64,000 nt of DNA. Source: a virus. This document shows, piece after piece, positions 6,946 to 48,090 of the stretch. The notes beneath the pieces were generated by a model. The model worked only from the letters and a program-made list of their open reading frames with translations, ran no database searches and was not told where the DNA came from. The translations under genes and the position numbers were made by a program. How positions within the stretch are numbered: position 1 is the first letter of the stretch; every line of letters starts with the position of its first letter. Location: the IMG/VR virus record IMGVR_UViG_3300036791_000458, positions 12,525 through 76,524 of that record, one strand, 5' to 3'.

Positions 6946-9923
6946 GAAATCAACTCAAATCCAAATTGCTCAGAGCGTTGTTTCAGTAGTTCCCTGTCTC
7001 GTTTAACCGACTCTTCGTTCCACGCGACCTTGTACACTTCATCCATTTGCCCGTCACCGTTGTGAAGAGGATGATCATGATGTAGAATCGCGTCTTTGCA
7101 CCAGAAGTATTTTCCTAGTTTCTTTGCGCGCCCAGTCAGTTCGTTGTCACAACCGACATGGTTGTAACCCGTGTGGAAAAACTCCCCGCCTATCAACGGA
7201 AGTAGCTTTTTACCAGCCAGCCAGTGAGTCGCGAGTTTGTCACCCCAGACACCGTCATTCAAACCTATCAGACCATCAAGATTCGGGAAGTTCTCGAGCA
7301 TTGAATCAACCGCGTGACGAAGGAAATCTTTTTGGGGAATTACATCGTCGCCCAAGAACAATATCAGTTCCCCATTAGCTTGCTCTACACCCTGCGCAAC
7401 CATCACCGGACAACCCTTACGATCTTCAAGAGAATCCTGCATAGAGATTACTTCGTAGTTAGAATAGCCAACAGTTTCCGGTAACATGGTCAGCAGTCTA
7501 AGCCATTTCTCTTTTCTTTGTGGTTGGACGGTTGGAATTACGATTGAAACTTTTGGTTCTTGTGTATGCAGTTTAACTCGAACCGGAACCTTTGGCGCTA
7601 TACTCAACCCGTATAGTTTGTGTAGCACATCCTTGTCTGCTTGGTTTGTTCTACTTTGATACATGAAAATTGGATCAAAGCTACTACCTGCGTCGATGTA
7701 GGTTCCGGATGGATCGCCCTTCGCGAGTTCTGCAATCCATACCTTTGCCGCGAGTCCCGCACAGAAAATGAAAATCTTTCCTTCACACGAGTGTTTAAGC
7801 ACTTCTGGCAGGATTCTTCTATGATCTTCGAACGCTTCAGTCGGACTTATACCTACATAATTTTTGATCTGTAGCAAGTCCATGACACCGGAGCGTAAAT
7901 CACTGGGGCCGACAAACACTTTCTTGTCTGGCGGGTAGTCCTTTACCGCCATCCAAAACTCTTTGACCTTCTCAAGATTGGAGTCAGTCCGATGAAGAAG
8001 CGTGTTGTATTCTTTTTGATTGTCAAAGTCTACAACATAGGCACGACCTTGAAGATAACGATATGCCTCCCGTAGCTTTTCTGCGAGTTCCACTGAGTAG
8101 GACTGGCCATCACAGTTTTTTCCCACGTCACCCCTCATGCACGCCATCTCACCATCACCACGCTTGACAAACGTAAAGGGAATTCTATTCCGAATCCTGC
8201 GAGTCAAGTCTTCGATAGTTACCGGAATCGGATTGAGCTTTTTGATCCAGATGGAATCAACAACTTCCACCTCACCAAGTTCATCCTTAACCGCATTCAT
8301 TACTTCCGGCCACGTTGTAGTGTAGTCATGACCACAAAGAAGTTTCTTCGCCTTCGGTTTCCACAACTGGATATCGCGACGAACGGCGTCATAAGAGTGC
8401 TCCGCGTCAATGAATACCATGTCGAATGCACCATCAGGATAGTCGCCTGCTGCGAATTCCATGTTTCTCACATTGACTTTCAGGTTCCGAAACGGTGCCA
8501 TGTTCTTAAGGAAGTTACCGTACACATCGATATGTTTTGCTGCTTCCTTCGTCAAGTCCCGTACATCAGCAGAACCCTGAAAGTGATCGATTGCAGTCAC
8601 TAGACCGTGAGGACACCCGGAACACAAAGCGTGGGTAGACTTTCCCTGCCAACTTCCCAGTTCTACAATTGACTGCATGGTAGATGCCGTCTTGTATAGC
8701 CATAAAAGCTCAGGGTAGGTCATCCAACCTTCGATTGAAGGATCAGCGTAGGGAAAATAAAATTGTGTGTCACGATGAAAATCCGGATTGAATGGTTCGA
8801 ATTCAAGGGCTTTCATTAGATGCTCCTGCGCCTTGTCTATCTTACCCATCCAACCGTTTGCCCAGTAAAGTAAAGCGTGGGGTTCTGAGGTATAGTGACG
8901 GTGATCATTTGCGTAATATCCGTTCCAAGGTATCTCCAAAGATGCGGCAGCATAGCAGGCAGTAGCTTGATAGTTTTGGTTGTGTTTGTAGAAGTTGGCA
9001 AGTCGTAGTAAGGATTCTCTACGATTGCAATCGACATAGAACGCCTTGTTATAGACCTCAACCTGTTTTTCCGGTTGGTTAAGAATTCCATAAGCATCTC
9101 CCATAAAAATTAGACTCTGAGCACGTTCTGCGTCCCAACGGTTCATGGCTACATGACGAGTAAACTCGTGAATAGCGGACTTCGGATGACCTGTCCACAA
9201 TAGCTCACGGCCTAAATAATGACTTTGGCGATCCTCATCCGGATTCATGAAGGCATCATAGGCGAGTCCCACAAGATACCGTGAGCGATGATTACGGTTA
9301 GGTTCCTGCCAGTGTTCTAGGTAGAGAACGGTTTCCGGTAGCATAGACCGTGTCGCATACAGTGAAGCCTCACGAGGGGACAGAACCTCATGAACTACAT
9401 TTCTCCACTGCAACAATCTCCGGTCATAGAACTTGCTTTGAATGAACTTCAATGCGGGATTACCGTACTGATCATGACTGAAGCAGAAGTTATACTCGAA
9501 CTGTCCGACACCATTTTGAATCAGACTATTAATGGCATCGATATCTAATGTAGTAAACTGCTCATCACAATCCGCGAAAGACACATGATCGGATGTCGCG
9601 CATGACGCGGCATAGTTACGTGACGCGGAAAAGTTGAATAGCTTATCCCCCGGATTCACTATCGGGGACTCACCGCCCACCACAAACTTATGGTTTATTT
9701 TTTGCGCGAGACTGGTGTTGATGGTAGTAACGAATTTTTCACCTGCCTCAAACACAACACAACCGAGTGAACGCGCAACATCTGTAGTTCCATCGGTTGA
9801 CCCGGTATCAACAAGGACAATCTCACCCTGCCTAGACTGGAAATCCCTGAGTGAAGAAACCAGTCTAGGCAGAGTATTCGCTTCGTTCTTCGCGATCAGC
9901 ACTATACTAAAAAGGGGCTTCAA
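6942..9923 (-). CDS. multidomain glycosyltransferase: GT2 + TPR + class I SAM methyltransferase + GT-D-like + second GT2
   Basis: FSIVLIAKNE/VDTGSTDGT/DCDE (GT2); TPR-like helices; VELGSWQGKS...FIDAEHSY...GHDY (Methyltransf_24-like); FVKRGDGE...YIDAGSSFD (GT-D-like); VSIVIPT...FLGDD (GT2). Confidence 0.85.
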   Translation of the reverse strand: MKPLFSIVLIAKNEANTLPRLVSSLRDFQSRQGEIVLVDTGSTDGTTDVARSLGCVVFEAGEKFVTTINTSLAQKINHKFVVGGESPIVNPGDKLFNFSASRNYAASCATSDHVSFADCDEQFTTLDIDAINSLIQNGVGQFEYNFCFSHDQYGNPALKFIQSKFYDRRLLQWRNVVHEVLSPREASLYATRSMLPETVLYLEHWQEPNRNHRSRYLVGLAYDAFMNPDEDRQSHYLGRELLWTGHPKSAIHEFTRHVAMNRWDAERAQSLIFMGDAYGILNQPEKQVEVYNKAFYVDCNRRESLLRLANFYKHNQNYQATACYAAASLEIPWNGYYANDHRHYTSEPHALLYWANGWMGKIDKAQEHLMKALEFEPFNPDFHRDTQFYFPYADPSIEGWMTYPELLWLYKTASTMQSIVELGSWQGKSTHALCSGCPHGLVTAIDHFQGSADVRDLTKEAAKHIDVYGNFLKNMAPFRNLKVNVRNMEFAAGDYPDGAFDMVFIDAEHSYDAVRRDIQLWKPKAKKLLCGHDYTTTWPEVMNAVKDELGEVEVVDSIWIKKLNPIPVTIEDLTRRIRNRIPFTFVKRGDGEMACMRGDVGKNCDGQSYSVELAEKLREAYRYLQGRAYVVDFDNQKEYNTLLHRTDSNLEKVKEFWMAVKDYPPDKKVFVGPSDLRSGVMDLLQIKNYVGISPTEAFEDHRRILPEVLKHSCEGKIFIFCAGLAAKVWIAELAKGDPSGTYIDAGSSFDPIFMYQSRTNQADKDVLHKLYGLSIAPKVPVRVKLHTQEPKVSIVIPTVQPQRKEKWLRLLTMLPETVGYSNYEVISMQDSLEDRKGCPVMVAQGVEQANGELILFLGDDVIPQKDFLRHAVDSMLENFPNLDGLIGLNDGVWGDKLATHWLAGKKLLPLIGGEFFHTGYNHVGCDNELTGRAKKLGKYFWCKDAILHHDHPLHNGDGQMDEVYKVAWNEESVKRDRELLKQRSEQFGFELIS

Positions 9924-11880: not shown

Positions 11881-14800
11881 CTAGTTATTCACTACCTCTA
11901 TGATTGCTTCACTAGCGGTAATTGTATTTGAAGCATTACCAGTTTTAATAGAAAATGATAAGATGCCATTCGCTATTGTCGTGTCGAAGGCACTCATCGC
12001 TGGTTGAATAATCTGAATTGGGACAACGGATATACCAGTCAAAGCTGTACCGACTGCTGCGCCGCTTGTATTGAACAATATGGCTATCGCCATTCCTGTG
12101 CCAGCAGCACCAACGCTTCTAACAGTGAACATGATTTGGATAGCCCAAGCTATGTTAGTTCCTGTTGTAGCTTGAGCGGCGAATGTAAAAGCACATATCG
12201 ATGCATCTGCTGTCGTACCAGCAGTTCCCCAACGCATTGTAAACACTGGCGCGGAAGCATTACCACCAGTAGCAACACCCAACATATGACACTGAAAAAC
12301 AGTACCTGCAACTAATCTATTTGCAGCAAGTGCAGCAGTTTTTACTGCAATTGTTTCCGTTTGACTGATTGCAGCTGTCGCAGAAAGTAGTGCAGCTCCG
12401 CCCGTACCAACACCAGCACCAGTGTAACCAGTCGCGCCTGTAGATGAGGCTGATCCTGCTACACCAGTATAACCAGTGTAACCAGTCGTACCTTGAGTTC
12501 CGGCAGGGCCAGTATATCCAGTCGGGCCAGTTACTGTACTTGGTGTTCCAGCAGACCCAGTGTAACCAGTTGGCCCGGTTACGGTAGATGAAGCTCCAGT
12601 GTATCCGGTGTAACCCGTATAACCAGTCGCACCTGCTTGAGCCATCAAAGCCCAGAACGAAGTATTGGTCGGAAGATTTCCAGTAGACGGAGCAATACAA
12701 ACGTAGCTTGAATTCTGGTAGCTAACTACATCATTGACTCCATACGTGGTGCCTGCATTGTAAGCACCTCTCCAAGTTAAAATCGGAATTGGAGTACTTG
12801 GCGCGACTACACCAGAACGAGTTGCGACAAGGTTAATACTTACATCTGCCATCGTGGCATCTTGAGTAGCAGGTGCAAGAATTGTTAATCTATCACCCGG
12901 ATTAGCAGTTACCACTAAACCACTGGAAGAAAATGTTTCTACCCCTGATGTATTGAATGTGCAAGTTCCAATTTGCACTCCATTCTTGTATATGGTGTAG
13001 ACGGCAGTTGCAGTTGGATTAGTACCTACTGATGCCTGAGAAGTTGGAGTGTTGAAGTCAGCAGGAAATTGAGCAGGAGCAGCTACCGTACTAATACAAA
13101 CTAGTTGACTGGCGGTAGGTTTTCCTGCAACAGCAGAAACAACATGCGTAAAATTATCAGTGCCTAATCCCGTATAACCAGTCGGGCCGGTATAGCCAGT
13201 GAAATTCCCTGCTCCAGTGTAACCAGTTGGCCCGGTGTAACCAGTATAACCAGTGAAGTTTCCTGCTCCAGTGTAACCTGTGTAGCCAGTCCTTCCGGTG
13301 TAACCAGTAGTACCAGTCGGGCCTATAAGTCCAGTGTAACCAGTTGGCCCGGTTACGGTAGAAGATGCTCCAGTGTAACCAGTTGGCCCAGTGACGGTAG
13401 AAGAAGCACCCGTGTAACCAGTGTATCCAGTGTATCCGGTAACGGTTGACGCAGCTCCCGCTGGCCCGGTATATCCCGTGTAACCAGTGAAGTTTCCTGC
13501 TCCAGTGTATCCAGTTGCACCTTGAGTTCCAACACTTCCGGTGTATCCGGTGTATCCAGTCGCTCCTACTACACCCTGAATTCCCTGAGCACCTGTATAT
13601 CCGGTGTATCCGGTTGGGCCTTGAGTTCCAGCAGTACCTTGACTTCCGGTGTAACCTGTAAATCCAGTTGGCCCGGTTACTGTTGAAGCTGCGCCTACAG
13701 AACCCGTGTAACCAGTGTAGCCAGTAGTACCTTGAGTTCCGGCAGTTCCTTGGCTACCTGTATATCCGGTGTACCCGGTTGGGCCTTGACTTCCAACAGT
13801 ACCTTGACTTCCGGTGTAACCTGTATAACCCGTGTAACCAGTAAAAGCACCCGTCCCAGTGTATCCGGTGTACCCAGTTGACCCCGTGGGGCCGGGATTC
13901 CCTGCGCTCCCCACAGAACCCTGAGCACCAGTGTATCCGGTGTATCCAGTGTAACCAGTCGAACCTTGAGTACCTTGAGTTCCGGTGTAACCAGTATAGC
14001 CAGTCGGCCCGGTAGAACCAATTCCAGCAATACCAGTGTATCCGGTGTAACCAGTTGAACCTTGAGTTCCGGGACTTCCGGTGTAACCTGTATAACCAGT
14101 TGAACCTTGAGTTCCCGGTGTTCCGGGAGTACCTTGTGCACCCGTGTATCCTGTATAACCTGTTACTCCTTGTGTGCCTTGAGTTCCGGTATATCCGGTG
14201 TAGCCAGTCGAACCAATAGTTCCAGCAGTGCCTTGACTACCAGTATACCCAGTGTAACCTGTAGCTCCCTGACTACCTACATTCCCAGTGTATCCGGTGT
14301 ATCCTGTCGAACCTTGAGCACCAGTGTAACCAGTTGGGCCTGTAGTTGCAGAACCGGAACCCGCAGGCCCGGTGTAACCAGTAGGCCCGGTTGGGCCACC
14401 ACCTGACGGCCCAGTAGGCCCAGTTGGGCCTGTAGATGACGCGGCACCCGCGCTTCCCGTATATCCGGTGTAACCAGTACTTCCAATCGCACCTTGAGTC
14501 CCGGTGTATCCGGTATATCCAGTTGCTCCGATAGTTCCAGCAGTACCTTGATTACCCTGAGCACCAGTATATCCAGTGTAACCTGTAGCTCCACTACCCG
14601 TATAACCAGTGTAACCTGTGGCTCCTTGTGTACCCGGAGTTCCGGTAGTTCCGGCAGTACCTTGACTTCCGGTGTAACCAGTCGGCCCAGTGTAACCTGT
14701 AGTTCCCTGTACTCCTGAAGCACCCGTGTAACCAGTCGGGCCAATGGTTCCTGCTGTTCCCGTGTAACCAGTTGGCCCTATGGTTCCTATACCAGTGTAA

Positions 14801-15270
14801 CCAGTGTAACCAGTATACCCGGTGTATCCTGTCCCACCAACCCCCGGTGTACCTTGAGCACCAGTATAACCAGTTGGGCCTGTGAAGTTTCCTGCGCCAG
14901 TATAACCAGTGTATCCAGTCGTACCAGTCCCAGAAGCACCTGTATATCCAGTTGGGCCGATAGAACCCGGAGCACCACCCGATCCCGTATAACCAGTAGG
15001 CCCGGTGTAACCAGTCCTTCCGGTGTAACCAGTAGCACCCGTAGAAGATGCACTACCTGCGCCTCCAGTATACCCAGTGTATCCGGTGTATCCTGTAGCA
15101 CCAGTGTATCCAGTCGCACCATTCCCACCACCACCAGTGCCGCCACCTTGATTATTTTCTGCAAAGGTATCGATCTTATCAAAGTTTTGGTTGACGGCCG
15201 AGTCCCAACCAACTTCACCGCGAAGAGGTTTATAGAGACTTAGAAACGGAGTTGTTGTACCAGATGCCAT
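11881..15270 (-). CDS. collagen-like (Gly-X-Thr) fibre protein 1
   Basis: Hundreds of GYT/GPT/GAT triplets and a [20 protein letters not shown]-like module. Start placed at MASGTTTP (15270), by analogy with MATGSTTP of the paralog and a nearby AGAGG RBS. Confidence 0.85.
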
Positions 15271-15277
15271 AAACCTC

Positions 15278-15943
15278 TTAGCTTGATATGTAGAATAAAA
15301 TCGGTGATGGTGTTGCGACAACAGCTTGTTTGAATGCAGCTACAAACGCCATCACTTGATAGTCTGTAGTTGTTGGTGTAAAAGTACCAGTCGCAGCAAT
15401 TCCAGTAGTGCTTGCATAAGCTAACATTTCTTCCATGTAGGCAAGTCCATCAGAAGTAGTAACGACTGAACTAAAACCGGAACCGGGCGTGAATGTTCTA
15501 CCACCTTGTCTAACCTCTGATGCGAAACCCAAAACTAAATCGCCAGACTGGGCAAGAACAGCAGTAGCACTCGAAGTCCAGTTTGGTGAACCCGGATCAA
15601 AACCATTATCTAGACCTGTTGCTTTATCCAACGGAGATGCGAGAGTACCAGAGTATTCTGCCACGATTAGTTCTGCCTGATTAAATGTAAACGTTGCTAC
15701 AATACTAGTCACACCAGCGGGTGACGCCGGAAGAAAGTAAACACCAGCCAGAAACGGCGTTGTTAAATTTTTTGCAATCGTTAAGCTGGTGCCTGAATTA
15801 GTTTTAACTGTAATTGCACCCGATGTTCCAAGAACAGTTAGATAAGCAACAATCAGACTATTTGCCTGCGAAGCAGTAATTGTTACAGTCAAGCTAGTTG
15901 CACCAGACGTAACTCCTGCCTTTTGTTGAACTCTAGTTGCCAA
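15278..15943 (-). CDS. hypothetical T/S/A-rich beta protein (virion surface?)
   Basis: 221 aa ORF between the two collagen-like genes, overlapping the upstream stop codon. Confidence 0.55.
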
Positions 15944-18710
15944 ACCGTACTACCTCTCCACCATTCACGGTGTATATATTGCTTGCTGATGCAACACTAA
16001 ATGTACCTAGAAGAATTGGCGTTTGTTGAACTGTCATGTCAACCGCATTACTTACAACTTGCTCAATATCAAACTTCGGTGTATTCGCTGTACCAGTCGC
16101 AGCCTGAGCAACCATCAATTTACCGACACAACCGAAAATACCTGTCGTACCAATTGAACGACGAATGATAGTAAATTCAACTTCCCAAGCATAACTGACT
16201 CCAGCAGTCGGAATCGTCTGAGCTGGAAACATAAGCAAGGTAGTAACACCTTGAATAGCTAACCTAATCTGGAAGGTTGTTGTAGAAGCTGCGAGATTAA
16301 CTGTCCCGAAGGCGTGAATCTTCAAAAATCTTCCTGCAACGTCTAGGTATCCTGCTGGAATCACAATACTATACAAAGTTTGGTCACCAGTTGTATTTGC
16401 AGAAAGAGTTGAAGTCGTAATCTTTGCATCACGAACGTAAAGTGCTTGCGCGGAATCCAGTAGATCAGCATTTGTATCTAAACCCGCGTAACCGCTGGGT
16501 TGATTTTTGTTAGCAGTTAATTCTGCGCCCGTTGTACCACCTGAACCCGAAGGCCCAGTATATCCGGTGTATCCAGTCGCGCCTTGACTTCCAGAACTTC
16601 CGGGAGCACCTTGGGCACCAGTGTAACCAGTAGCACCAGTTGCTGTCGCAGCTCCCGCTGATCCTGTATACCCGGTGTACCCAGTCGCGCCACCCTGTGC
16701 CATAACATTCCAGAACGATACGTTCGTCGGAACGTTACCAGTCGATGGAGCAATACAAATGTAACTACCATTTTGATAGCTAACCGCGTCATTCACTCCA
16801 TAGGTAGTACCACTAGCGTAAGCACCTCTCCAAGTTACAATTGGAATTGGACTACTCGGTGAGACAACCCCTGATCTTGTTGCAGCTAAAGTGATACTCA
16901 CGTCTGATAGTGTGGTATCTTGAGTTGCGGGCGCAGTCACCGTCAATCTGTCACCCGGATTTAGCGTTACAGTTGTACCACCCGTTGTGGTGAACGTGAA
17001 AACACCAGCAGTAGAAATTGCAATCGAACCTACTTGAGTACCATTTTTTTGAACAGTATAGGTTGCAGTAGCCGTGGGATTAGTTCCAACCGAACCTTTT
17101 GAGTTTGGAGTCGCGAAGTTCGCAGGAAACTGCATAGAAGTCGCGGCGGTATAGATCATCACCGACTGACTTGCACTCGGTTTTCCTATGACTGCGGAAA
17201 CCAAGTTACTAAAATTATCAGCCCCTAAACCAGTGAATCCGGTGTAACCTGTTGCACCAGCTATACCTTGAGGGCCAGTTGAACCCGTCGCTCCCGCTGG
17301 GCCTTGACTTCCCTGTGGGCCTTGAATACCTTGACTTCCCTGTGGGCCAGTAGAACCTTGTATACCTTGCGCGCCTTGTGGGCCTTGAATACCTTGACTT
17401 CCCTGTGGGCCAGTAGAACCTACAGAACCCGGTGCTCCCGGTGTTCCTTGAGCACCAGTGTAACCAGTATAGCCAGTGTATCCAGTCGGCCCCACAACGC
17501 CTTGTGTACCTTGAGCACCAGTGAAACCAGTGTACCCAGTGAAACCAGTTGCACCTATAGTTCCGGGAGTACCTTGAATACCAGTGTAGCCAGTGTAACC
17601 AGTGAAACCAGTGTATCCAGTCGCGCCCAAATTACCAGTTGTACCTTGAACACCCTGAGCACCAGTGTAACCAGTAGGCCCAGTTGAACCTTGAATACCA
17701 GAATTACCCGTGTATCCGGTGTAACCAGTATAGCCAGTTGAACCTATAGTTCCCGCGACTCCTGTATACCCGGTTGGCCCGGTAATTGCAGATGCGGGGC
17801 CAGTATAGCCGGTGTAACCAGTATAGCCAGTTGAACCTGTAGAAGACGCGCCACCCTGTGGCCCGGTGTATCCTGTCGCACCAGTTGCTGACGCGTTTCC
17901 TGCTGGGCCAGTTGTACCAGTATATCCGGTGTAGCCAGTCGAACCAGTCGCAGAAGCTGAACCTGCTGGCCCGGTAGTTCCGGGAGTACCTTGAATACCA
18001 GTGTAGCCAGTGTAACCAGTGAAACCAGTGTATCCAGTGAAACCCGTGTAACCAGTTACACCCGGAATACCTTGAGCACCAGTATATCCGGTGTAACCCG
18101 TGTAACCAGTTACACCCGGAATACCTTGTATTCCTTGGCTTCCGGTATACCCGGTGTAGCCAGTATATCCTGTAACTCCCTGATTACCTTGAGCACCCTG
18201 TATTCCTTGACTTCCGGTATAACCAGTGTATCCAGTGAATCCCGTGTAACCTGTTACGCCTTGTGGCCCTTGTATTCCTTGACTTCCAGTGTAGCCAGTA
18301 TATCCTGTAACTCCCTGATTACCTTGTGGCCCTTGTACTCCTTGACTACCTTGACTTCCGGTGTAACCTGTCGCGCCTTGTGGGCCTACCGGGCCTTGAT
18401 TTCCCTGTACACCTTGAACACCTTGAACACCCTGATTGCCTTGAGCACCTTGTGAGCCTACCAAACCTTGTGGCCCTTGACTACCTTGTGGCCCTTGAGT
18501 GCCTTGAGCACCTACTGGGCCTTGTGGCCCTGTAGTTCCGGTAGTTCCGGCAGGGCCGGTGTACCCGGTATAACCTGTCGCACCAGTCGCACCACCCGAG
18601 TACGCTCCATCCAGAATATCCCAGTTCGCGTTAACCTGATCACCCCAGTCAAACGAATCGTTTGCAGGTTTGAAAAGGTTTAGATTAGGAGTTGTCGAAC
18701 CTGTAGCCAT
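15933..18710 (-). CDS. collagen-like (Gly-X-Thr/Gln) fibre protein 2
   Basis: GYT/GPQ/GSQ triplets; carries the same post-collagen domain and CBM-like module as fibre 1; includes [13 protein letters not shown], a motif common in fibres. Confidence 0.85.
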
Positions 18711-39053: not shown

Positions 39054-39266
39054 TTAATCTCTCGCTAAGTCTTCCAATCTGACTTCACGTGAATATCCGA
39101 ACTTGTCTTTTAATATTATTGTGCCACCATCGTGAACGTGGGCGGCTAGAATTCCCCATGTGTTCATCGCCTTAAACGCCATGGCATCAAGCGCGCTCAT
39201 CTTCTCAAAGAGACGCGCATTGAAGTTGATCTTATCCGGGTCTGCTATAGTAACTACTGCTCTCAT
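39054..39266 (-). CDS. hypothetical protein
   Basis: 70 aa ORF with an AGGTGA RBS. Confidence 0.5.
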   Translation of the reverse strand: MRAVVTIADPDKINFNARLFEKMSALDAMAFKAMNTWGILAAHVHDGGTIILKDKFGYSREVRLEDLARD

Positions 39267-39274
39267 GACTTCAC

Positions 39275-40942
39275 CTATTCTTCCTGCTTGTGAGCATTCC
39301 TTGATGCTTGTTGAGCAACATATGATGCTCTTCTTTTCTCGCCCATCGATGAATCATCATTCGCGTGAATTTTTGCAGCATTCGCGTGAGCTTCTCCGGC
39401 AGATGCATGATTTTCCCAGTCTGCGCTTCTTCCAGCAGCATCATGTTCTCCACCTCTTGCATAGTGGTAGGCACTTGCTGCTTCGTGCTCCTTTTTAGTA
39501 GACGCGTTTTCTGCTTTACCACCACTTCCAGCAGGATATCTACCAGAACCCGGCCCACCTTTGAAGACTACTTCTTCCCTACCAGTCGATGCTTTGTAGA
39601 GAGTAGTCGCGTCTTGTGCTTTAAGCGAAGATTGTTCTTTGTCGCGAGCATCCCATGACGAATCATGCGCGACTCTTGACGCGACACGTGCCTTCTCACT
39701 CATCGAACCAAGTTCATCTTTTGAAGGCGTGTCCGCTCCAGTTTTCAAATGTGCCTTGTAGGCAGCGGCATGAAGATCGGCTGCATTTTGATGAGCATCA
39801 GCCGCGTCATTGTATGCTTTCATCCCAGTACGTTCTGCGATTTGCCGCGAACCACGTGCCATGATCTGATGGTGTTGCGCGGCATCAGCATGTGCTTTGG
39901 CGCTATCTGCGCCCAAGGCATTATGAATCACTCGTTCTCTCGCAGCTTCTCCCGCTGACGAACTACCACCACTTCCTGCGGGATACCTGCCGGAACCCGG
40001 CCCGCCCTTGGTCATTCCAGTCCCCAAGTTTTCAACCGGGATTCCGGCAGGAATGTTGTCTGCTCTCACGAATCGCTCAACATCGGACTTATATGGAATC
40101 GATGGATTCGTCCTCATGCCGTTGACGAAGTCTTTCACCAGACTACATTCTGACGCGTCCGGTGTTGACTGTGACATCTGTTGAATGAATGATCGCTCAG
40201 GTACTTTCCCATGCGCGAGCATACTTGCTTGACGAGCAAGAGATGAAGGCGGCTGGACTCCTTCTGAACCAAGTGATACCGCGTGCTCGTGCGCGTATGC
40301 CGCGTTAAAGTGCTTTTGCGCGTCCGAGTCTCTTCCTTCTGTTTGAAGTGTCGCGCCTACTCTTCGATGATACTTTCCTGCGCGTTTATGAGCATCAGTA
40401 GTTTGCGCGTTCTCTGATGCAATTTGATCTGCAAGGAAACTACCATTCTCCAAACGGGGCTGATCGGGCGCGTACTTGTTTACTTTGCCACCTGTTTGTT
40501 TAACGAATTGCTCAACGAAACTCATGTTACTCTCCCTTTTTCCCACCTCTCCGGGTTTAAGTTGCGTCGGTTCTTTTCTTGGCTTAACTAGAAAAGCATG
40601 AACTCCTATAGAAGAATTGTTTGCGTCAGTAGAAAGTCCCTCTCTGGTATGAGGATACTTTCCACCTTCTGTAATTACTCGCCTATGAAGTTCCGCTGCG
40701 TGCTCATGAGCGTTCTGTCTCTGTCTTTCCGCGGCGACCAAGTTAGGACGATTCGCGTACATGTTCGCTTCTCTATCATGATAGTTCGCAGCTTCCTCGT
40801 GTTCTGCATCAGTACTCGCGCTCGAACACTGCTTCATCTTCTCTTCGGTATCTTGCTCACACTCATCGAAGTGTTCATGATCAGGTCTCGCGTTACCCGT
40901 ATCGCCTCCGTACTGGTAAATGTAATTCTCAAGTAAGCTCAT
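39275..40942 (-). CDS. His/Ala-repeat protein with KGGPGSGRYPAGS and KYAPDQPR motifs (putative internal head protein)
   Basis: Four modules of H..AA..H..AA..H helical repeats; two identical KGGPGSGRYPAGSGG peptides. Confidence 0.65.
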   Translation of the reverse strand: MSLLENYIYQYGGDTGNARPDHEHFDECEQDTEEKMKQCSSASTDAEHEEAANYHDREANMYANRPNLVAAERQRQNAHEHAAELHRRVITEGGKYPHTREGLSTDANNSSIGVHAFLVKPRKEPTQLKPGEVGKRESNMSFVEQFVKQTGGKVNKYAPDQPRLENGSFLADQIASENAQTTDAHKRAGKYHRRVGATLQTEGRDSDAQKHFNAAYAHEHAVSLGSEGVQPPSSLARQASMLAHGKVPERSFIQQMSQSTPDASECSLVKDFVNGMRTNPSIPYKSDVERFVRADNIPAGIPVENLGTGMTKGGPGSGRYPAGSGGSSSAGEAARERVIHNALGADSAKAHADAAQHHQIMARGSRQIAERTGMKAYNDAADAHQNAADLHAAAYKAHLKTGADTPSKDELGSMSEKARVASRVAHDSSWDARDKEQSSLKAQDATTLYKASTGREEVVFKGGPGSGRYPAGSGGKAENASTKKEHEAASAYHYARGGEHDAAGRSADWENHASAGEAHANAAKIHANDDSSMGEKRRASYVAQQASRNAHKQEE

Positions 40943-40955
40943 CTACTTTTCTTTC

Positions 40956-41192
40956 TAAGCACGAACAAAATTTGATTTCTGAACCTAATTTTCTCCCCGG
41001 TGGAGATTTTCCAGTCGAAGACTACTTTTGACTAGTGCTTAGTGCAAAAAACAAAGTGCTTACTTACTTTTTGGACTAAGCACTAGTCTTTTTTCATTAT
41101 TCAACTACCCTGAATATGACTTTTCCCGTCCCCCGATAAACACATAAAATTTCCGAAAACTGACTAAGCACACTCGAAAATGGCATAAGCAC
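40956..41192. repeat. cluster of six TAAGCAC motifs, including a 21-bp inverted repeat
   Basis: TAAGCAC/GTGCTTA at 40956, 41035, 41056, 41077, 41165 and 41186. IR arms are 41030-41050 and 41068-41088 (one mismatch). Confidence 0.7.
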
Positions 41193-41218
41193 ATTTAAAA
41201 ATAGGAAAGCTAAGTGAT

Positions 41219-41569
41219 TTAAGTGATTTTCGACTGAGATTCATGATCGAATCCATTCGGTTTGGTGATACGAATTTCACCACTAGTTAAACGCTCATCG
41301 TTTTCTGTCACCTGCCTACTCAAACTCTTCAGAAAATCACTCGAACTCGTTTTTCCCCCCGACGAAGATTGATCGGAAGTAGAATTCGAATTGTGCTTTG
41401 GGGTTTTCAGTAGTTCGAGTGATAGCTTAAACGCGATTCGAATCGCGTCTAATATGCTATTTCCATATGTCCGGAAACAATGGTACTGCATCCAAAAGTG
41501 TCTGGGCAGGGAAAGGATACGCTTCCATAGTGGTCGCCTTTTCAGGATTACTTCTTTACCAGTATCCAT
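41219..41569 (-). CDS. hypothetical protein
   Basis: 116 aa ORF with an AGGA RBS. Confidence 0.45.
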   Translation of the reverse strand: MDTGKEVILKRRPLWKRILSLPRHFWMQYHCFRTYGNSILDAIRIAFKLSLELLKTPKHNSNSTSDQSSSGGKTSSSDFLKSLSRQVTENDERLTSGEIRITKPNGFDHESQSKIT

Positions 41570-41659
41570 TTAAGCATCCTCTGAGACAGTTTCCCACGTA
41601 TCCCAGTGTCAAAAACGTCTACGAACTCGTTAGAAGGGCAAGCAATTAGGTTTAAACTA

Positions 41660-42547
41660 CTATCCTATGGTTCCCTCTATAGTGTTCGGGTGATTCCCAT
41701 TCCTACCTGTCCCGCCATTCCTCGTGGGATAGGTCTCATGTGGCACATTTCCATCAGTCAACTGGTGCACATTCATCTGTCCGACATCACCATTGATAAT
41801 CGCGTCTAGTACGTTGATAGTTACATTAGTTGGCTCCTGCTCTTCCTTAGGCATGAGTCTCTGCCACTTAGTCAAAAGAGTAAGCGCTTGAAGTTTGTCA
41901 TGTAGTTTGAACTTAGTCCGCCTTACTTTGGTAAAAACTTTAACTCCATTGTTTACAATAGGTTCCCTCAACACTTCTTCCTCGCAGATAAGTTCTCCAA
42001 TCGCAGCTGCTTGATTACGTGTGATATTTTGTAAATCAAATGACCATGATCCATCGGGATTGATCTGAATGTAATCGTACACATTGGAATAAGCGAGATT
42101 AGCGAGCTCTGATAGAGTCTTCTCAGCAGAAATTTCGAGGTGCCTAGACGCAACTTTAAGTACTCGATCTATCTCTTCTTTCACTCTGGGATTTTTCAGT
42201 AAGATAACCGAAACCTGCATAGGGTTCGAGTATCCTGCCTTCTGTGCCGCGGCTGTACCATTTAACTTGGGGTCTTCAACAAAGAACCGTACAAAAAGTG
42301 CTTGCCTAACGGTCAACTTACTTCCGGTAGCTCCACGTTTACCAAGCTTGATGAACTGATTGGAAATTTCCTGCTTTTTCTTGGTAGCTTTCGCAGTGGA
42401 ATTCTGACGGGACTTCTTGGACTTCTCTCTTTTTTGGGGGGAGATAGGTTTTCCAGTCGAAAAGACTAAAGGTACACGCGGGGGGACAGTCCTAACTTCT
42501 TGAGGCGTATTATCCATATAAACATTGGGGTGCCCATAACTAAACAT
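41660..42547 (-). CDS. terS: terminase small subunit
   Basis: LTVRQALFVRFFV...NGTAAAQKAGYS...LLKNPRVKEEI HTH, plus the TLSELANLAYSN and KFKLHDKLQAL signatures. Confidence 0.9.
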   Translation of the reverse strand: MFSYGHPNVYMDNTPQEVRTVPPRVPLVFSTGKPISPQKREKSKKSRQNSTAKATKKKQEISNQFIKLGKRGATGSKLTVRQALFVRFFVEDPKLNGTAAAQKAGYSNPMQVSVILLKNPRVKEEIDRVLKVASRHLEISAEKTLSELANLAYSNVYDYIQINPDGSWSFDLQNITRNQAAAIGELICEEEVLREPIVNNGVKVFTKVRRTKFKLHDKLQALTLLTKWQRLMPKEEQEPTNVTINVLDAIINGDVGQMNVHQLTDGNVPHETYPTRNGGTGRNGNHPNTIEGTIG

Positions 42548-42607
42548 GTCCGAAAATGTCTATTTGAGCAAGACACACTTAGGTACAAGACACAAATCCG
42601 GATGAAG

Positions 42608-42638
42608 ATTATGGTACTCGTATTGAGGGGGTTGTCAA
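42608..42638 (-). promoter_or_regulatory. putative sigma70-type promoter upstream of terS
   Basis: Minus strand TTGACA (42633-42638) followed by TACCATAAT. Confidence 0.45.
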
Positions 42639-42708
42639 GGGCGAGGGAAGTTATTAGGTAAATAAATTACCTTAGACAGCATGAATGGATTCTAACTTTT
42701 TAAAATAT

Positions 42709-43975
42709 AGCTCAGACTCAGACTGTGACTATGACTTAAACTTTGACTGTAGCCGTCTTTGACTCCGACTTAGACCTTGTCCATGACTTCGACTGTAGCT
42801 TACGAACGTCTTTGGAACTCTATGACTTTGACCACGACCTTGCCTTCGACTGTGGCTACTGAGACTTTGGCATTGAAAAGGACTCGGCCTTTGACTGCGA
42901 CTACGATTACGACTTCTTCAACTTCGACTTAGGCATCAACCGTGACTTTAACCTTGACTCCGGCTTCTAAGACTATGCCTAAACAGGGACTCAAGCTATG
43001 ACTGAGACTCCGTCTTCTTTGACTTCAACTACGACACCGACTTCGACACCAGCTATGGCCAAGTCCTTGACTTTAACCTTGACTCCGGCCTCTGTGACTT
43101 AAACACTGCCTGGGACTACGACTTCAACTGTAGCTTCTACGACTTCGACATAGATATCGCCTTCGACTCTGCCTAGAACGTTGACTATGGCCTCTTTGAC
43201 TAGAACATTGACCTCGTCTGTAACTCTGACTTCGGCACTCTTCGTCTACGGCAATGACCGGGTCTATAGCTGCGACTCCAACTTCGGCTTCTTCGTCTTC
43301 AACCTAGACTGGGACTACGACTTCAACTGCGACTTCTTAGACTCAAACTTAAACATCGGCTATAACTCAAACTTTGACACGGACTCAAGCGATTATGACT
43401 ATGGCCGTGACTTGGACTCAGACTCCTGAGACTGCGACTTCGTCTACGGCAATGACTATAACTGTGCCTTGGACTTCGACTTCAGCTTCTGTGACTACGA
43501 CACCGACTTTGTCCATAACTTTGACCGTGATTTATAACTAGACTACAACTCCGACTTTGACATTGCCCATGACCTTGACTACGACAGAAGACTACAGCTT
43601 CTGAGACTCGGACTGGGACTTCGTCTAAAACTCAAACTCTGACAGCGGCTGTGACCATGACTTTAACTGAGACTGTAGCTTCTCGGACTTAGACACAAAC
43701 TTAGACCTCGCCCATGACAATAACCATGACTTCAACTGCGACTGTGACTCCAGCTTCTGCGACTAGGACATAAACCACGACTTCATCTTAGACCGGGACT
43801 GCGGCTAGCTTCGACACGAGCTTTGACTTAGCCCACGACTATGCTTCAACTTTTTACGCGTAGACTTTGACTTGGCTTCAACTTAGTCATTGACTATGGC
43901 TTCTGTGACTAGGACTGTGACTGAATCATTGACACCGACTACGGCTTCTGAGACTATGACGTAAACTTCACTTCG
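42709..43975 (-). ncRNA. main hexamer-periodic non-coding array (putative guide-RNA array of the solo RAMP)
   Basis: About 1.25 kb of tandem RAC-(T/C/A)-NN hexamers on the plus strand (minus: NN-DGTY), broken into more than 20 blocks by 9-nt RGCTTC-TNN linkers. Stop codons occur in all six frames. The repeat is seen directly; the RNA role and strand are inferred. Confidence 0.7.
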
Positions 43976-44120
43976 ATTCTACTTGCCTATTGTCTGCAAG
44001 AAGTAATAACGCTTCAAGTTCAAACTGCAATTTTAGTGTATCCGTGCCATCAACATCCTCACCATTCTTCTTACGAAGCAATTCCAAAAGATGTCGGGTT
44101 GCAGTAAAATCCATGATCAT
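43968..44120 (-). CDS. 50-aa hypothetical protein embedded between array segments (below the ORF-track cutoff)
   Basis: GGAG RBS, then MIMDFTATRHLLELLRKKNGEDVDGTDTLKLQFELEALLLLADNRQVESK*. Confidence 0.55.
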   Translation of the reverse strand: MIMDFTATRHLLELLRKKNGEDVDGTDTLKLQFELEALLLLADNRQVESK

Positions 44121-44133
44121 TTAGCTACTCCAA

Positions 44134-44316
44134 TACTTTGACAGTGACTTAATCATAAGCACCGACATGGACTACGACTGTGGCTTCTATGACTCAGTCA
44201 TGGACTCGAACTAGGACTGTGGCAGCAACTTCAACCTTGACTATGACTCCGGCTTCTTCGACTTTGATCAAGGCTATAACTTCAACCTAGACTGCGGCAT
44301 CGGCTTCTTTGACTTC
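44134..44316 (-). repeat. second hexamer array segment
   Basis: gacagt gactta ... gactgt GGCTTC TAT gactca gtcatg gactcg aactag ... gactcc GGCTTC TTC ... ggcatc GGCTTC TTT. Confidence 0.85.
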
Positions 44317-44553
44317 GGGTTCATCAGGTTCATCGGTGAGAGTGACCTTGAAATATTCGCCACCTATCGAAAACACACGAGCGATATGTGATTCTTCTTC
44401 TGAAAGTGGTCTCCCAACTTCAATGCTAATGACAGGAGAAAAACCCTCGCTATAATCCGTTGCTTCCTTCACAAAAACATCAAAATCGTTTTCCTCAAGA
44501 TCATTACCTTCGAGCGGTATTTCAATCAAAAGTTTTTTCAAGTTTGCCTCCAT
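44287..44553 (-). CDS. small acidic hypothetical protein between array segments
   Basis: 88 aa ORF; its last codons overlap the array grammar. Confidence 0.55.
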   Translation of the reverse strand: MEANLKKLLIEIPLEGNDLEENDFDVFVKEATDYSEGFSPVISIEVGRPLSEEESHIARVFSIGGEYFKVTLTDEPDEPEVKEADAAV

Positions 44554-44560
44554 TTTCTTT

Positions 44561-44684
44561 ATCTTTGACTAAAACTGCGACTGAAACTGTGACTTAGACT
44601 CCGGCTTCTTCGACTGAAACTCGAACTCTGACACGAACCGTGACTTTGACTCAGGCTTCTTCGACTTTGGCTATGACTTAGCTA
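44561..44684 (-). repeat. third hexamer array segment
   Basis: gactaa aactgc gactga aactgt gactta gactcc GGCTTC TTC gactga aactcg aactct gacacg aaccgt gacttt gactca GGCTTC TTC. Confidence 0.85.
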
Positions 44685-44690
44685 AGGCGG

Positions 44691-45809
44691 TTACTGAATT
44701 TCTAAAATGGTCAAGTGCACCATCTGTCCGCTCATCTCCACCACTTCACCAACGTATTGCTTCGAGGTTAGTCCGAAGATTGCGACATGTGGCTCACCAT
44801 TTGATGGTTTGTGCTCATAGATGAGATTGGTTTTAAAATCCATCGTCAGAACTTTTTTGACGGCCTCAACCGCGTGCTCGGGTTTGTACTCGAACACATT
44901 GGTTTTGTCTTCCCCTCTCAATAGTTCTGTGCCCATACGTTTGACCGCGTCTTTGTGGAGTGCTTCCCATGACAACGGCACATCGAACAATTCGATAGTC
45001 TTGCACCCGGTGTAGGTAATCAGTGACAACCCACACTGGTTTTCATGCAGGCGTGCCTTGGAAAGAATGTCATCGAAGTTCTGCGAGAAAGCATCGAAGT
45101 TATCCTTGAGATTATCCTGTCTAAAAGAAGAAAGAGGCGGCTGTTCCTCGGGAATTGATACTGACGAACCGAATATTCCGCTAGAACGAGATGTGAATGT
45201 ACGACGAACACCCGGAACACGTCCGGAGATATCCGCGCTCACTCTTTCACCACCCATCATGGCGTTCATGGTTGTAGTGGTTTTGGTTACGTTCTCCCAA
45301 ACCGTATGTTGATCTGCTGGAGTGAACCCCGCTGTGTAGCTCGCGTTCTCAACCGCAATTGGAACGGTGCCACCGTACTTGAAATTGCTTCCAGTACGAA
45401 TACCATGACTCGCGTGAACACACCGAGCATCAAGCGCAACCTCAGAGTTAGGAAACAACACCGCGCTTCTGGTAATGATTCTGGACTGGGTTCCCTTGCC
45501 TTCGAAGATGGTTCCGGAGCGAAGGAAGACGTTTTCTTTCCCAGTGTTTTTGATATTGATTTTGTTGATCATGCCACTGTCCGTAACAATGACGTTTTCT
45601 GTCTCTGGCATGGTGACATACTGACGGACAAAAGTGGTTTCCCGAAGGATTGGAAGGATACAAGCTAAGGATTTCTCGGATGGACGATCTGGTTTTCCGA
45701 ATGAGAAACCCAACTTCTCTTCTGCTACTGCAAGAAGAACTGCCTCTTTGCTAAGAGTTTTAGCCATGTGGTACTCCTTTTGTTCACGGATTCTTCCGTG
45801 TATACACAT
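44691..45809 (-). CDS. ARPP-1/DUF6569-like protein
   Basis: V.VTDSG.IN.INIKN.G..NVFL.SG.IF.G..TQSR......V.....V....RCV pattern and a later QH.VW..V motif. The likely start is MAKTL at 45767 (GGAG RBS). Confidence 0.65.
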   Translation of the reverse strand: MCIHGRIREQKEYHMAKTLSKEAVLLAVAEEKLGFSFGKPDRPSEKSLACILPILRETTFVRQYVTMPETENVIVTDSGMINKINIKNTGKENVFLRSGTIFEGKGTQSRIITRSAVLFPNSEVALDARCVHASHGIRTGSNFKYGGTVPIAVENASYTAGFTPADQHTVWENVTKTTTTMNAMMGGERVSADISGRVPGVRRTFTSRSSGIFGSSVSIPEEQPPLSSFRQDNLKDNFDAFSQNFDDILSKARLHENQCGLSLITYTGCKTIELFDVPLSWEALHKDAVKRMGTELLRGEDKTNVFEYKPEHAVEAVKKVLTMDFKTNLIYEHKPSNGEPHVAIFGLTSKQYVGEVVEMSGQMVHLTILEIQ

Positions 45810-45823
45810 GTGTACTACCTAAC

Positions 45824-46150
45824 TCAGAAAAATGTCAAATCTTCACGGACTCGCAGAACTAGCTTTTCAGCCATTCCTATAGCTGCGTCCGGTGACTCAT
45901 ACTGTGGTTTTGAGGTGACCAAATCACGTATGCGTATAGAACCGGATGGTGTCCTGTCCAGCATCCCGATATAGAGACCAAACTTCCCAGTCTCTTTATC
46001 AGGCCCGAAGTAAGAACAAAAAACTTCGTCTTCATCGGCTGCACGAATCACAATAAAGGTAAGCTGCGAGATACTTCCCAGCATTCTATCGACTTCATCG
46101 ATTGGCATGTATTCTCTTTCTCTCGCGTGCTTTAAAGTCGTACAGTCCAC
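45824..46150 (-). CDS. hypothetical protein
   Basis: ORF track; co-oriented with neighbours. Confidence 0.5.
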   Translation of the reverse strand: MDCTTLKHAREREYMPIDEVDRMLGSISQLTFIVIRAADEDEVFCSYFGPDKETGKFGLYIGMLDRTPSGSIRIRDLVTSKPQYESPDAAIGMAEKLVLRVREDLTFF

Positions 46151-46504
46151 CCCAGTGACCTAGTGAGCGAAGTTCATTACGAAGCCTTCTACTCATGGTA
46201 CTTCTACAACCGTACTTATTGTTTGCCCAAGCGAGTACATCAAGAAGACTACTGACTTTCACTTTACGACTAACTTTACGATCAATTAGCATACTACTCT
46301 CCTGTCAATCAGTCAAAACATCGTCATAGTCGGAGCGTTCTCTAAGCTCCATTTCCTCTGCTGGTACTGACGGTAAACGTCAGATGGCGAAGGTCGTCAA
46401 GCGCGGGAAGGTGTACGGGTTCCGGGACGGTATTGTCCACCCACACGAACTAGCTTAGTATAGCTCATAATTTTCCCCCTTTGGAATTACGTTCTGAATA
46501 AATA

Positions 46505-46552
46505 TACTTCGACTTAGGCGGCGTCGTAGTCTGAGCCTGTGACCGTGACTTA
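46505..46552 (-). repeat. single short hexamer block just downstream of the RAMP terminator
   Basis: tacttc gactta ggcggc gtcgta gtctga gcctgt gaccgt gactta, with C at every third position of the hexamer. Confidence 0.55.
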
Positions 46553-46623
46553 AAAAAATGGACTACTCCCCAACGACAGAGAGTAGTCCCGAGTTTATCC
46601 GTACCCGGAAGGATTTCGGATAA
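46552..46623 (-). terminator. intrinsic terminator of the RAMP gene preceded by a second hairpin
   Basis: Minus strand: TTATCCG...CGGATAA hairpin, then GGACTACTC-loop-GAGTAGTCC followed by ATTTTTTT. Confidence 0.75.
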
Positions 46624-46648
46624 GCAGCCTCAACCATGAGCAAACCTG

Positions 46649-47362
46649 TTATTCTGCTTCTGCTTTTTCTTCGCCTTCAACTTCTTCGTCGTCTTCTGGA
46701 ACGGTGACCTTTGCTTTCTTGGGCGCGGGAGTCAGATAGTCCCAACCCGCGACTTGGAACCGTCCATACCCTTGAGGACGAGCAGAACCGATACCAATCT
46801 GTTTCCCGCCCCATTCGATCAGCTTCTTCAAATCGTCGGGCAGGATGATTTCCTCATCAACAGAGAACACGCCCCGGGCAATGAAGTCATCGATGTAGAA
46901 ACTGGAGCACCAGTTCCGCTGGTTGGACGTTTCCATTTTGACGAAACGTTCAAAGAGCTTCGCGTCAGCGACAGTCTTCTCGGTGACCATCATTTTGTCC
47001 GCTATCTTGACACCGATGAACGTCAAACCCTTGTCAGACACACGCGGAATCGCTTTCGGCGCTTGCATCGACGCATTGTTGATGAAACTCTGAATGATTC
47101 GTTCCGGGATTGCGATCAGACCTTCACGCGTGCCGTCCACGGTGTAGAAGGGACGTTCTGCTTTTTTCTGCATGTCTTCGTAGTTCTCTTTGGTGAGACC
47201 ACGTTTTTCGAGCGCAGCGAGCAGAGCCTGCTCTTTTTTGCTCGCGCCCAGTTTGGGGTGAACGTCTTTGCTGATGTCGATGATTGTATTACGCTCGGGC
47301 CAGTAAGGCAATCCGATGTAACCGGAACCATTGAAGTTAAACGCGACTTGAACTTTAACCAT
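46649..47362 (-). CDS. stand-alone RAMP / Cas7-like (Csm3/Cmr-type fold) protein
   Basis: C-terminal glycine-rich loop LKKLIEWGGKQIGIGSARPQGYGRFQV, internal PFY..DG...IP...I.S.I..A segment, N-terminal beta strand, and acidic tail. Strong RBS (AAGGAG). Confidence 0.75.
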   Translation of the reverse strand: MVKVQVAFNFNGSGYIGLPYWPERNTIIDISKDVHPKLGASKKEQALLAALEKRGLTKENYEDMQKKAERPFYTVDGTREGLIAIPERIIQSFINNASMQAPKAIPRVSDKGLTFIGVKIADKMMVTEKTVADAKLFERFVKMETSNQRNWCSSFYIDDFIARGVFSVDEEIILPDDLKKLIEWGGKQIGIGSARPQGYGRFQVAGWDYLTPAPKKAKVTVPEDDEEVEGEEKAEAE

Positions 47363-47430
47363 AAGGTACTCCTTCTGTTGATTGTTTTACTAAACAACTT
47401 GACTTTGGCACAGACTGAACTAAAGCTGCA

Positions 47431-47895
47431 CTACGGGAGTCGGTCTAGTAGCTCAGGACGATTTCTCTTAAGCCACCTTTTCAATGCTTTAAGTTTGTAC
47501 AAAGTCCGTCTACCAGACCGTTCAACGGGGAATGATGAGTTCAACAGTCTCCATCCGGAAACTGTTGCTGGAGGCACATCCAACATTCTCAATAACATGT
47601 CCAACGTAACCAAGTCAACACTCCGCCGAGAAAACACGTTTTCAATTTTCTGATCGGCAACCTCATTGTGAGTTATCCAACCCGTCTTAGTTCCATACGG
47701 GCGCCGGAATTCAATCCAAATGCGGTAGCTATTTAAAACTTCGACCATCCCATAAATCGGATGCTTGATCTGGCCGAGTTCATCACAGCGAATCCAATCC
47801 TTCTTTCCATCCGGGCGTAAAAATTGAATCCAGAGATAACCTCGCTTCAAAACTTTTACCATTCCAAAATCGGGGTGCTTAATCTGATCACTCAT
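47431..47895 (-). CDS. DNA-binding protein with duplicated N-terminal module and C-terminal excisionase/MerR-like HTH
   Basis: QIKHP..GMV.VL....WI.F.RP.G....WI occurs twice, then LDVPPATVSGW...FP....GRRTLYKL..L.RWL. Confidence 0.6.
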   Translation of the reverse strand: MSDQIKHPDFGMVKVLKRGYLWIQFLRPDGKKDWIRCDELGQIKHPIYGMVEVLNSYRIWIEFRRPYGTKTGWITHNEVADQKIENVFSRRSVDLVTLDMLLRMLDVPPATVSGWRLLNSSFPVERSGRRTLYKLKALKRWLKRNRPELLDRLP

Positions 47896-48090
47896 AGTTT
47901 CCTCTCATCACTTTTCTGACTTCCTTACCACGCCCACAACCTGATGCTATCACATCAACAAGGGAGAAAATGCAAGCTGAACATAAAGCTGTAGGCGCGG
48001 AAAGTAAACCAGAACTATGACTTCTCTCCATAACATTTAGGATTTTTATTACCCCTGCCCTGCCCTGCCACGTTTAGACTAGTCTTTTGA

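Follow-up and report, generated by a model that had tools for sequence, protein, structure and literature searches.

Hexanucleotide arrays in a phage genome, a probable six-base variant of VIPR guide arrays with a lone Cas7-type RAMP as partner

VIPR, known since 2026, is described as a programmable RNA code that recognizes DNA in a gapped fashion and has been proposed as an ancestor of CRISPR RAMPs; it pairs a phage-borne lone RAMP protein (Vipr) with vrRNAs that consist of 9 to 16 YNNGG units and a structured tail (10.64898/2026.04.26.720920). Each unit is held by one Vipr protomer, which sequesters GGY (10.64898/2026.04.26.720920; 10.64898/2026.04.26.720927), and the NN pairs are left to read double-stranded DNA, in which each unit skips one base (10.64898/2026.04.26.720920). 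In this way the system silences competing phages and satellites (10.64898/2026.04.26.720920; 10.64898/2026.04.26.720927; 10.64898/2026.10.15.759431), and solo and decoy vrRNAs of satellites have also been described (10.64898/2026.10.15.759431). Processing cuts the expressed vrRNAs to about 100 nt, and they are recovered together with the protein. Exemplars of VIPR type II are Escherichia phage SUSP1 and a Pseudomonas fulva prophage (10.64898/2026.04.26.720920; 10.64898/2026.04.26.720927; PDB 36pp).

The described units take the form GGY/NN or NNNGG, YNNNG, and NNNNG. According to the portions of the literature available to us, all seven published VIPR types have a pentanucleotide motif; non-canonical repeats (GAC/NN, CAC/NN, WGT/NN, and TGH/NN) have been reported (10.64898/2026.04.26.720920; 10.64898/2026.10.21.760802), and both tail-less "staggered" arrays and ribozyme-separated arrays exist (10.64898/2026.04.26.720920, fig. 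S18). The Evo-PIN language-model survey, in its available part, lists 99 VIPR-like clusters, all with p = 5 (10.64898/2026.10.21.760802). These same portions of the VIPR literature and of the Evo-PIN survey make no mention of a period of 6. Six-base steps are known from Cas7 filaments, which hold crRNA in this register (10.64898/2026.04.26.720920). One further Evo-PIN entry, cluster 8,581 from Chloroflexota, is described in the available part of that survey as period-8 arrays of fixed TAGTC pentamers and variable trimers (10.64898/2026.10.21.760802).

Here we analyzed a 64,000-nucleotide stretch of DNA from a virus (the window) that contains three arrays of six-base units. We consider it probable that these arrays are a hexanucleotide variant of VIPR guide arrays and that their partner is the lone Cas7-type RAMP encoded at 46649-47362. 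All genes within 41.6-47.9 kb lie on the minus strand, and the locus is arranged as follows; L001 is a related phage contig from IMG/VR.

42703-43967, minus strand: main array of period-6 NNAGTC-type hexamers, flanked by the stop codon of the 50-aa ORF and the terS promoter region
43968-44120, minus strand: 50-aa ORF between arrays, conserved in L001 at 7638-7790
44134-44316, minus strand: second array, about 24 hexamers with 3 clear linkers, overlapping the last codons of the 88-aa ORF
44287-44553, minus strand: 88-aa acidic ORF whose 3' end extends into the array; absent from L001
44561-44690, minus strand: third array, about 18 hexamers with 2 GAAGAAGCC linkers, beginning right after the TAA of the ARPP-1-like gene
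44691-45809, minus strand: ARPP-1 domain gene (PF20208, Pfam E 6.9e-21), between the RAMP gene and the arrays
46505-46552, minus strand: isolated small block of degenerate hexamers, shortly beyond the RAMP gene terminator (weak parse)
46560-46589, minus strand: terminator-like hairpin after the RAMP gene, 13 pairs followed by a T-run
46649-47362, minus strand: stand-alone Vipr-like RAMP gene, protein P0001 of 237 aa with a Cas7/Csm3 fold and the G-rich loop GIGSARPQGYGRF
47431-47895, minus strand: 154-aa ORF directly upstream of the RAMP gene, HTH_17 at Pfam E 0.0048, below cutoff

This locus resembles VIPR in several respects: it is phage-borne, with a lone minimal RAMP and no other cas genes; its arrays are intergenic, co-oriented, and made of short units of fixed letters plus a free NN; each locus holds many guide-sized blocks (about 4-15 units here versus 9-16 in VIPR); and the NN behave as conserved information. 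It differs in that the unit has six bases (NN + AGYC) rather than five, in the lack of a conserved structured 3' tail, the separator being only a hexamer with an extra triplet, and in having a much larger bank, which comprises 20 or more clear blocks in the window. With a six-base AGYC unit and neither structured tail nor ribozyme, the arrays thus lack two defining features of vrRNAs. As far as the available text describes them, "staggered" VIPR arrays come closer, being long and tail-less, with one guide ending where the next begins and with fixed letters that may differ from GGY; for these and for the non-canonical repeats, however, a period of 5 is reported, versus 6 here. Cluster 8,581, again judging from the available part of its description, shares a similar AGTC core that alternates with free letters between co-directional genes, but it has a period of 8, a reverse-complement copy that would fold into stems, and no protein partner, whereas the present arrays have one orientation only, no fold, and a RAMP partner.

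To describe the arrays, we parsed them by dynamic programming and counted a linker as clear when at least 5 of its 6 letters matched AGAAGC. The main array resolves into 173 hexamers, 15 clear linkers, and 9 frame-breaking units, and the three arrays sum to 214 hexamers and 20 clear linkers; these numbers agree with the roughly 200 hexamers reported in the initial annotation. That annotation had also divided the main array into more than 20 blocks, a count that stands if degenerate linkers are included (a looser parse yields 34 nine-mers) and falls if only the 15 clear ones are used. Its plus-strand description of the hexamer, with an almost constant C at position 3, mostly GA or AA at positions 1-2, mostly T at position 4, and free letters at positions 5-6, is correct, being the complement of the minus-strand unit NNAGTC.

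The autocorrelation of 42709-43975 peaks at lags 6, 12, 18, and 24 (0.49, 0.43, 0.40, and 0.39; about 0.2 elsewhere) and has no peak at lag 5. At odd multiples of 3 it grows with distance (0.34 at lag 33), the signature of 9-nt punctuation that moves the hexamer phase by 3. Along the minus-strand unit N N A G T C, entropies are 1.86, 1.93, 1.26, 0.27, 1.05, and 0.96 bits, so that the period-6 peak is accompanied, as had been foreseen, by two near-maximal positions. The G is about 96% fixed. Jointly, the two free letters carry 3.71 of 4 bits, with all 16 dinucleotides in use and GA the most frequent, and the blocks are nearly all unique. A contig from a second assembler and the same soil sample is identical over 42400-44800, with zero differences. 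The window arrays together hold 16 frame-breaking units and many degenerate cores, and part of the bank may therefore be decaying.

The 9-nt linker that punctuates the hexamers reads NNAGAAGCY on the minus strand. Its recurrence, already pointed out in the initial annotation, is well beyond chance: AGTCNNAGAAGCYNNAGTC, the linker context, occurs 11 times on the minus strand and 0 times in 100 shuffles. Punctuation of 9 nt in a period-6 array gives a block length of 6n+3 nt. The observed linker spacings agree with this: 13 of 17 are 3 mod 6 in the window, as are 14 of 14 and 4 of 4 in other contigs that share this grammar. Linker position is labile between the window and L001, with a 9-mer in one phage standing, at several places, where the other has a plain hexamer (NNAG+AAG+YC versus NNAGTC). 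This swap suggests that the linker is not a fixed handle; it looks more like a hexamer with a 3-nt insertion, and the block borders themselves appear to evolve. Across the array contigs, the only block separator is a 9-nt NNAGARGCY unit, and a staggered-type junction between blocks may also occur.

We compared the window with L001, which carries the same arrays in the same place. At third codon positions, the flanking ARPP-1 genes of the two share 74% identity, a level at which neutral DNA would be expected to align. For the arrays, BLAST nevertheless returns only register-free matches of 57-62%, with no whole-array alignment. Of 23 window blocks, however, 6 can be paired with an L001 block that shares 6 or more NN, where 0.05 are expected from shuffles. 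NN identities in these six are 10/10, 9/9, 7/7, 6/7, 6/7, and 6/10, and the 7/7 match involves a block of the second array; the other window blocks have no partner in L001. The order is the same for three of the six; the other three are displaced, two having crossed the 50-aa ORF. The comparison, which the initial annotation had proposed as a check, suggests that a block is retained, lost, or relocated as a whole, in the manner of spacers.

Within the partnered blocks, the framing letters have changed more than the free ones. Among 41 NN-identical hexamer pairs, A is identical in 23, G in 40, T in 26, and C in 32, although the contrast between NN and core is inflated because the pairs were picked by NN identity. 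Partly diverged NN blocks are also detectable by this method, and the best ones found are perfect. Near-perfect NN strings alongside drifting framing letters suggest that the NN carry conserved information, and the drift itself argues against recent transfers. Of the framing letters, G alone appears truly fixed between window and L001. The third letter, A, differs between orthologous units and is therefore unlikely to pair. The block comparison thus offers evidence, from sequence alone, that selection keeps the NN and not the "constant" letters. Together with the association with a RAMP gene and the precedent of VIPR, the NN-identical partners of 6 of 23 blocks support the proposal made in the initial annotation that blocks are discrete, information-carrying units.

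We scanned the metagenome contigs in full for a single specific linker-plus-hexamer pattern and obtained 52 stretches, 6 of which contain genuine arrays; these represent five distinct sequences (L507, L485, L519/L482, L506, and L528). The contigs are distant from one another and of different G+C, yet each encodes a P0001 homologue (54-68% identity), and in each the array begins at or just past the stop of this homologue, on the same strand. The RAMP gene is the only gene that the array contigs have in common. Their unit is NN + AGYC throughout; these G+C-richer versions alternate between AGCC and AGTC, with NNAGAGGCC or GAAGAAGCC as linker. Among the seven family members for which the DNA context was read, the grammar is exclusively associated and co-oriented with the RAMP gene family. 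L519 (Ga0208827_1000087) and L482 (Ga0209415_10012419) apparently have the same gene and array over the displayed stretches and may be the same phage sampled twice, with its array unchanged.

In IMG/VR, the specific pattern located the grammar in the L001 contig only, and a profile search located the RAMP family there only. Searches of 50,697 phage records gave no match, either by DNA similarity to 39200-47100 or by tblastn of the RAMP protein, and terS, used as a probe for relatives in IMG/VR, gave none. Broad patterns (three on IMG/VR and one on genome contigs) returned, among the matches listed, mostly dipeptide-repeat genes and chance hits; two such matches were rejected, L050 as an SPS-L/I coding repeat and L478 as a Q-rich repeat. 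Array DNA has also been translated by gene callers, as in the N-terminal "MVKVVVPVVVQVVVKVKF" extension of protein P0025, and in this form it pollutes protein databases; the same extension indicates that arrays can also lie upstream of the RAMP gene. ORFs that end inside arrays in the xV frame are found in the window (44287-44316) and in L485 (640-680).

P0001 belongs to a tight family. It has 97 homologues (47-91% identity; family members of about 210 aa), neither it nor any of these matches a Pfam family, and the family comprises 255 clusters at E up to 0.001 in a 50%-clustered library. A structure model (pLDDT 84) places alpha2 (175-188), the G-loop (190-202), and beta4 (203-209) after beta1, with a beta-hairpin at 135-168. 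This model matches Csm3/Cas7 at a Foldseek E of about 2e-6 and a VIA Z of 12.3 (rmsd 3.3 A over 152 residues), and its best 50 structural rows are all Cas7-family proteins (Csm3, Cmr4, type VII Cas7, and gRAMP), a ranking that excludes Vipr because the fold library holds entries to 8 April 2026 and the Vipr structure is not among them. The model agrees with a stand-alone RAMP that has an RRM core, a G-rich loop, and a thumb, and no CRISPR array accompanies the gene. In the ORFs near the RAMP gene no cas families were found, the RAMP gene being the single one, and the tandem-repeat list of the window contains no CRISPR-like repeats of about 25-40 nt. The acidic C-terminal tail of P0001 (residues about 212-237, low pLDDT; 46649-46730) is missing from most homologues.

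The relationship of P0001 to Vipr itself is remote and confined to the G-loop region, another difference from VIPR. The family profile matches SUSP1 Vipr (PDB 36pp, chain 36pp_D) with an E of 3.8e-5 over about 60 residues only (alpha2, G-loop, and beta4), and the single P0001 sequence reaches an E of 1.4. In the short and weak HMMER alignment, D177 and W178 of Vipr stand opposite S/T193 and A194 of the P0001 family, and R179-P180 opposite the invariant R195-P196. D177 and W178 are the residues reported to read two guanines of GGY (10.64898/2026.04.26.720927), so their replacement in the P0001 family fits a changed fixed motif. Csm3, Cmr4, and type VII Cas7, which score highest by structure (Z of 10-12.3 across about 150 residues), belong to filaments whose six-base step length equals the array step here. 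The locus differs from class 1 CRISPR in having no repeat-spacer array and no other cas genes, and from Cas7 in that 5 of 6 letters pair there, versus 2 of 6 that are free here.

On the model that we favor, the minus strand of the arrays would be transcribed and bound by one RAMP protomer per six-base unit. Each protomer would grip the framing letters, of which G would be essential and A, T/C, and C would be tolerated within a small set, and the resulting filament would expose the two free letters. The NN string of one block (about 4-15 units) would then form a gapped address in foreign DNA, most likely in the genes of competing phages, which the filament would silence. The 9-nt unit, a hexamer plus an AAG triplet, would break the register and so mark the boundary between successive guides.

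Composition offers a hint of such targets. In 4 of 4 independent array groups, the NN are fitted best by codon positions 1-2 of the sense strand, 23-38 bits better than by genome dinucleotides; this is expected if the wobble bases of target genes are skipped, and we take it only as a hint. We searched G001, G002, and the genome of the present phage for targets of 75 blocks, allowing skips of 0-4 nt, and found none above shuffles; one exact 1-nt-skip pattern of a conserved block had 0 matches in IMG/VR. Folding of the array RNA shows no excess of structure over shuffles (z +0.98); 41500-48000 contains no Rfam match at E up to 1, and the arrays have neither a conserved structured 3' tail nor a hammerhead ribozyme.

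If this model is true, a natural six-base version would mean that the register of the code, pentanucleotide in the available portions of the published work, is not fixed. The features that go with six bases would then be a Cas7-like protein, AGYC framing, changed guanine-reading residues, and tail-less guides. Such a system would supply a second geometry for comparison with Cas7 filaments and could widen the design space of gapped-guide tools. It is possible, though we think it doubtful, that the arrays represent instead a distinct and undescribed branch of RNA-guided RAMPs, with the six-base register of Cas7 and two bases exposed per step, standing between VIPR and class 1 CRISPR. Such a branch might obey another gap rule, or its target might be RNA instead of DNA; the latter might apply because the closest structural matches, Csm3 and Cmr4, target RNA.

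The large window arrays are separated from the RAMP gene by 2-3 kb that include a terminator and three or four genes, and other promoters may drive them. A G+C-rich hairpin is found between the RAMP stop and the first array units in L519 (7373-7420), L528 (about 120-200), and the window (46560-46640); it may act in termination, in attenuation, or as a processing signal. The distance between arrays and RAMP gene in the window is one of several observations consistent with a role other than guiding, in which the RAMP binds array RNA but the arrays act as a scaffold, a sponge, a decoy for a rival Vipr-type protein, or a regulator of genes of the phage itself. Many units are degenerate, no target was matched in the searches of three phage genomes and with one IMG/VR pattern, and solo and decoy vrRNAs are known (10.64898/2026.10.15.759431). 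A sponge, however, needs framing letters only, whereas here the NN are conserved in shared blocks while the framing letters drift; near-maximal NN entropy and nearly all-unique blocks are likewise at odds with it. We therefore regard this explanation as unlikely.

Arrays of short boxes are also known as DNA sites, for example those of ribbon-helix-helix partition proteins, and the main array lies directly upstream of terS (Terminase_2, E 1e-16). It could thus be a packaging, partition, or operator-type array of 4-bp boxes. This seems to us quite improbable: the arrays of the other contigs follow the RAMP gene and are not beside a terminase gene, arrays are always on the RAMP coding strand, and nothing in a box array would explain why the two spacer letters are kept as the box itself drifts. 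A good sigma-70-like promoter match (TTGACA, 16 nt, TACCAT) at 42611-42638 on the minus strand separates the main array from terS, which may accordingly have its own promoter.

A degenerate or recoded low-complexity coding sequence, whether (xV)n-xEA, (S-K/E/Q)n with TAG read through, or an S-R-rich frame, would account for the triplet phase that is maintained across linkers. In L507 and L506, the NAG/TCN frame continues the RAMP frame (after a TAG and a TGA stop, respectively) and has TAG stops only; in L485, the AGY/CNN frame is open for about 330 codons; and gene callers have translated array stretches, as in the P0025 extension. The AGY/CNN frame is open by construction, however, since AGY|CNN cannot be a stop, and the frame relation to the upstream gene varies among contigs. 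In agreement with the initial annotation, which had listed stops in all six frames and 5-mers that break the frame, we found TAA, TGA, and TAG in all three minus frames of 42700-44700 (39-45 stops each) and 33-53 stops per plus frame, and nine 5-mers or single-base slips interrupt every frame of the main array. The dinucleotides that form stops, TA and TG, are not depleted but as common as others (16 of 92 units); TAG ends 9 of 34 long ORFs of this phage; and between relatives the third letter is free, including TAA/TAG/TAT and TGT/TGA at the same unit. The conclusion of the initial annotation that this is no low-complexity coding sequence therefore holds, and we consider the coding alternative very improbable.

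A neutral hexamer microsatellite (e.g., GAAGTC), expanded by slippage and decaying, was rejected as extremely improbable, in line with the initial annotation: GA is the commonest NN and unit-sized indels would keep the triplet phase, but decay should hit six positions alike rather than leave 0.27 bits at G versus 1.9 at each N, neighboring units share the same NN no more often than chance (13 of 177; 0.089 expected), and distant contigs that differ in G+C show this grammar next to the same gene. Two further candidates were set aside, a type III toxin-antitoxin-like repeat RNA, since the blocks are not identical repeats, and the target of a diversity-generating retroelement, since an invariant third A is at odds with adenine mutagenesis.

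The genes that accompany the probable guide arrays and their RAMP differ in how well they are conserved. Between window and L001, the 50-aa ORF has identities of 0.84, 0.90, and 0.68 at the three codon positions and a tblastn E of 4e-7; family searches with it gave no match. The 88-aa ORF at 44287-44553 may not be a real gene. The ARPP-1 protein is 87% identical in L001 and has a homologue at 61% identity in a provirus of 91.8 kb (L002/G002), which has no RAMP gene and no hexamer array; in the array contigs other than L001, ARPP-1 is absent. We therefore rejected ARPP-1 as an obligate partner of the module, and its occurrence without RAMP gene or array in the provirus indicates an independent cargo gene. 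The 154-aa ORF at 47431-47895 might, with low confidence, be a DNA-binding accessory (vap-like) gene; an HTH_17-like (excisionase/MerR-like) ORF also lies beside the module in the unrelated contig L519 (8188-8481; E 5.8e-4, sub-threshold).

Elsewhere in the window, 11881-18710 contains long minus-strand ORFs with period-9 repeats (e.g., ACCAGTGTA), which correspond to Gly-X-Y collagen-like triplets on the coding strand; these ORFs probably encode tail-fibre proteins.
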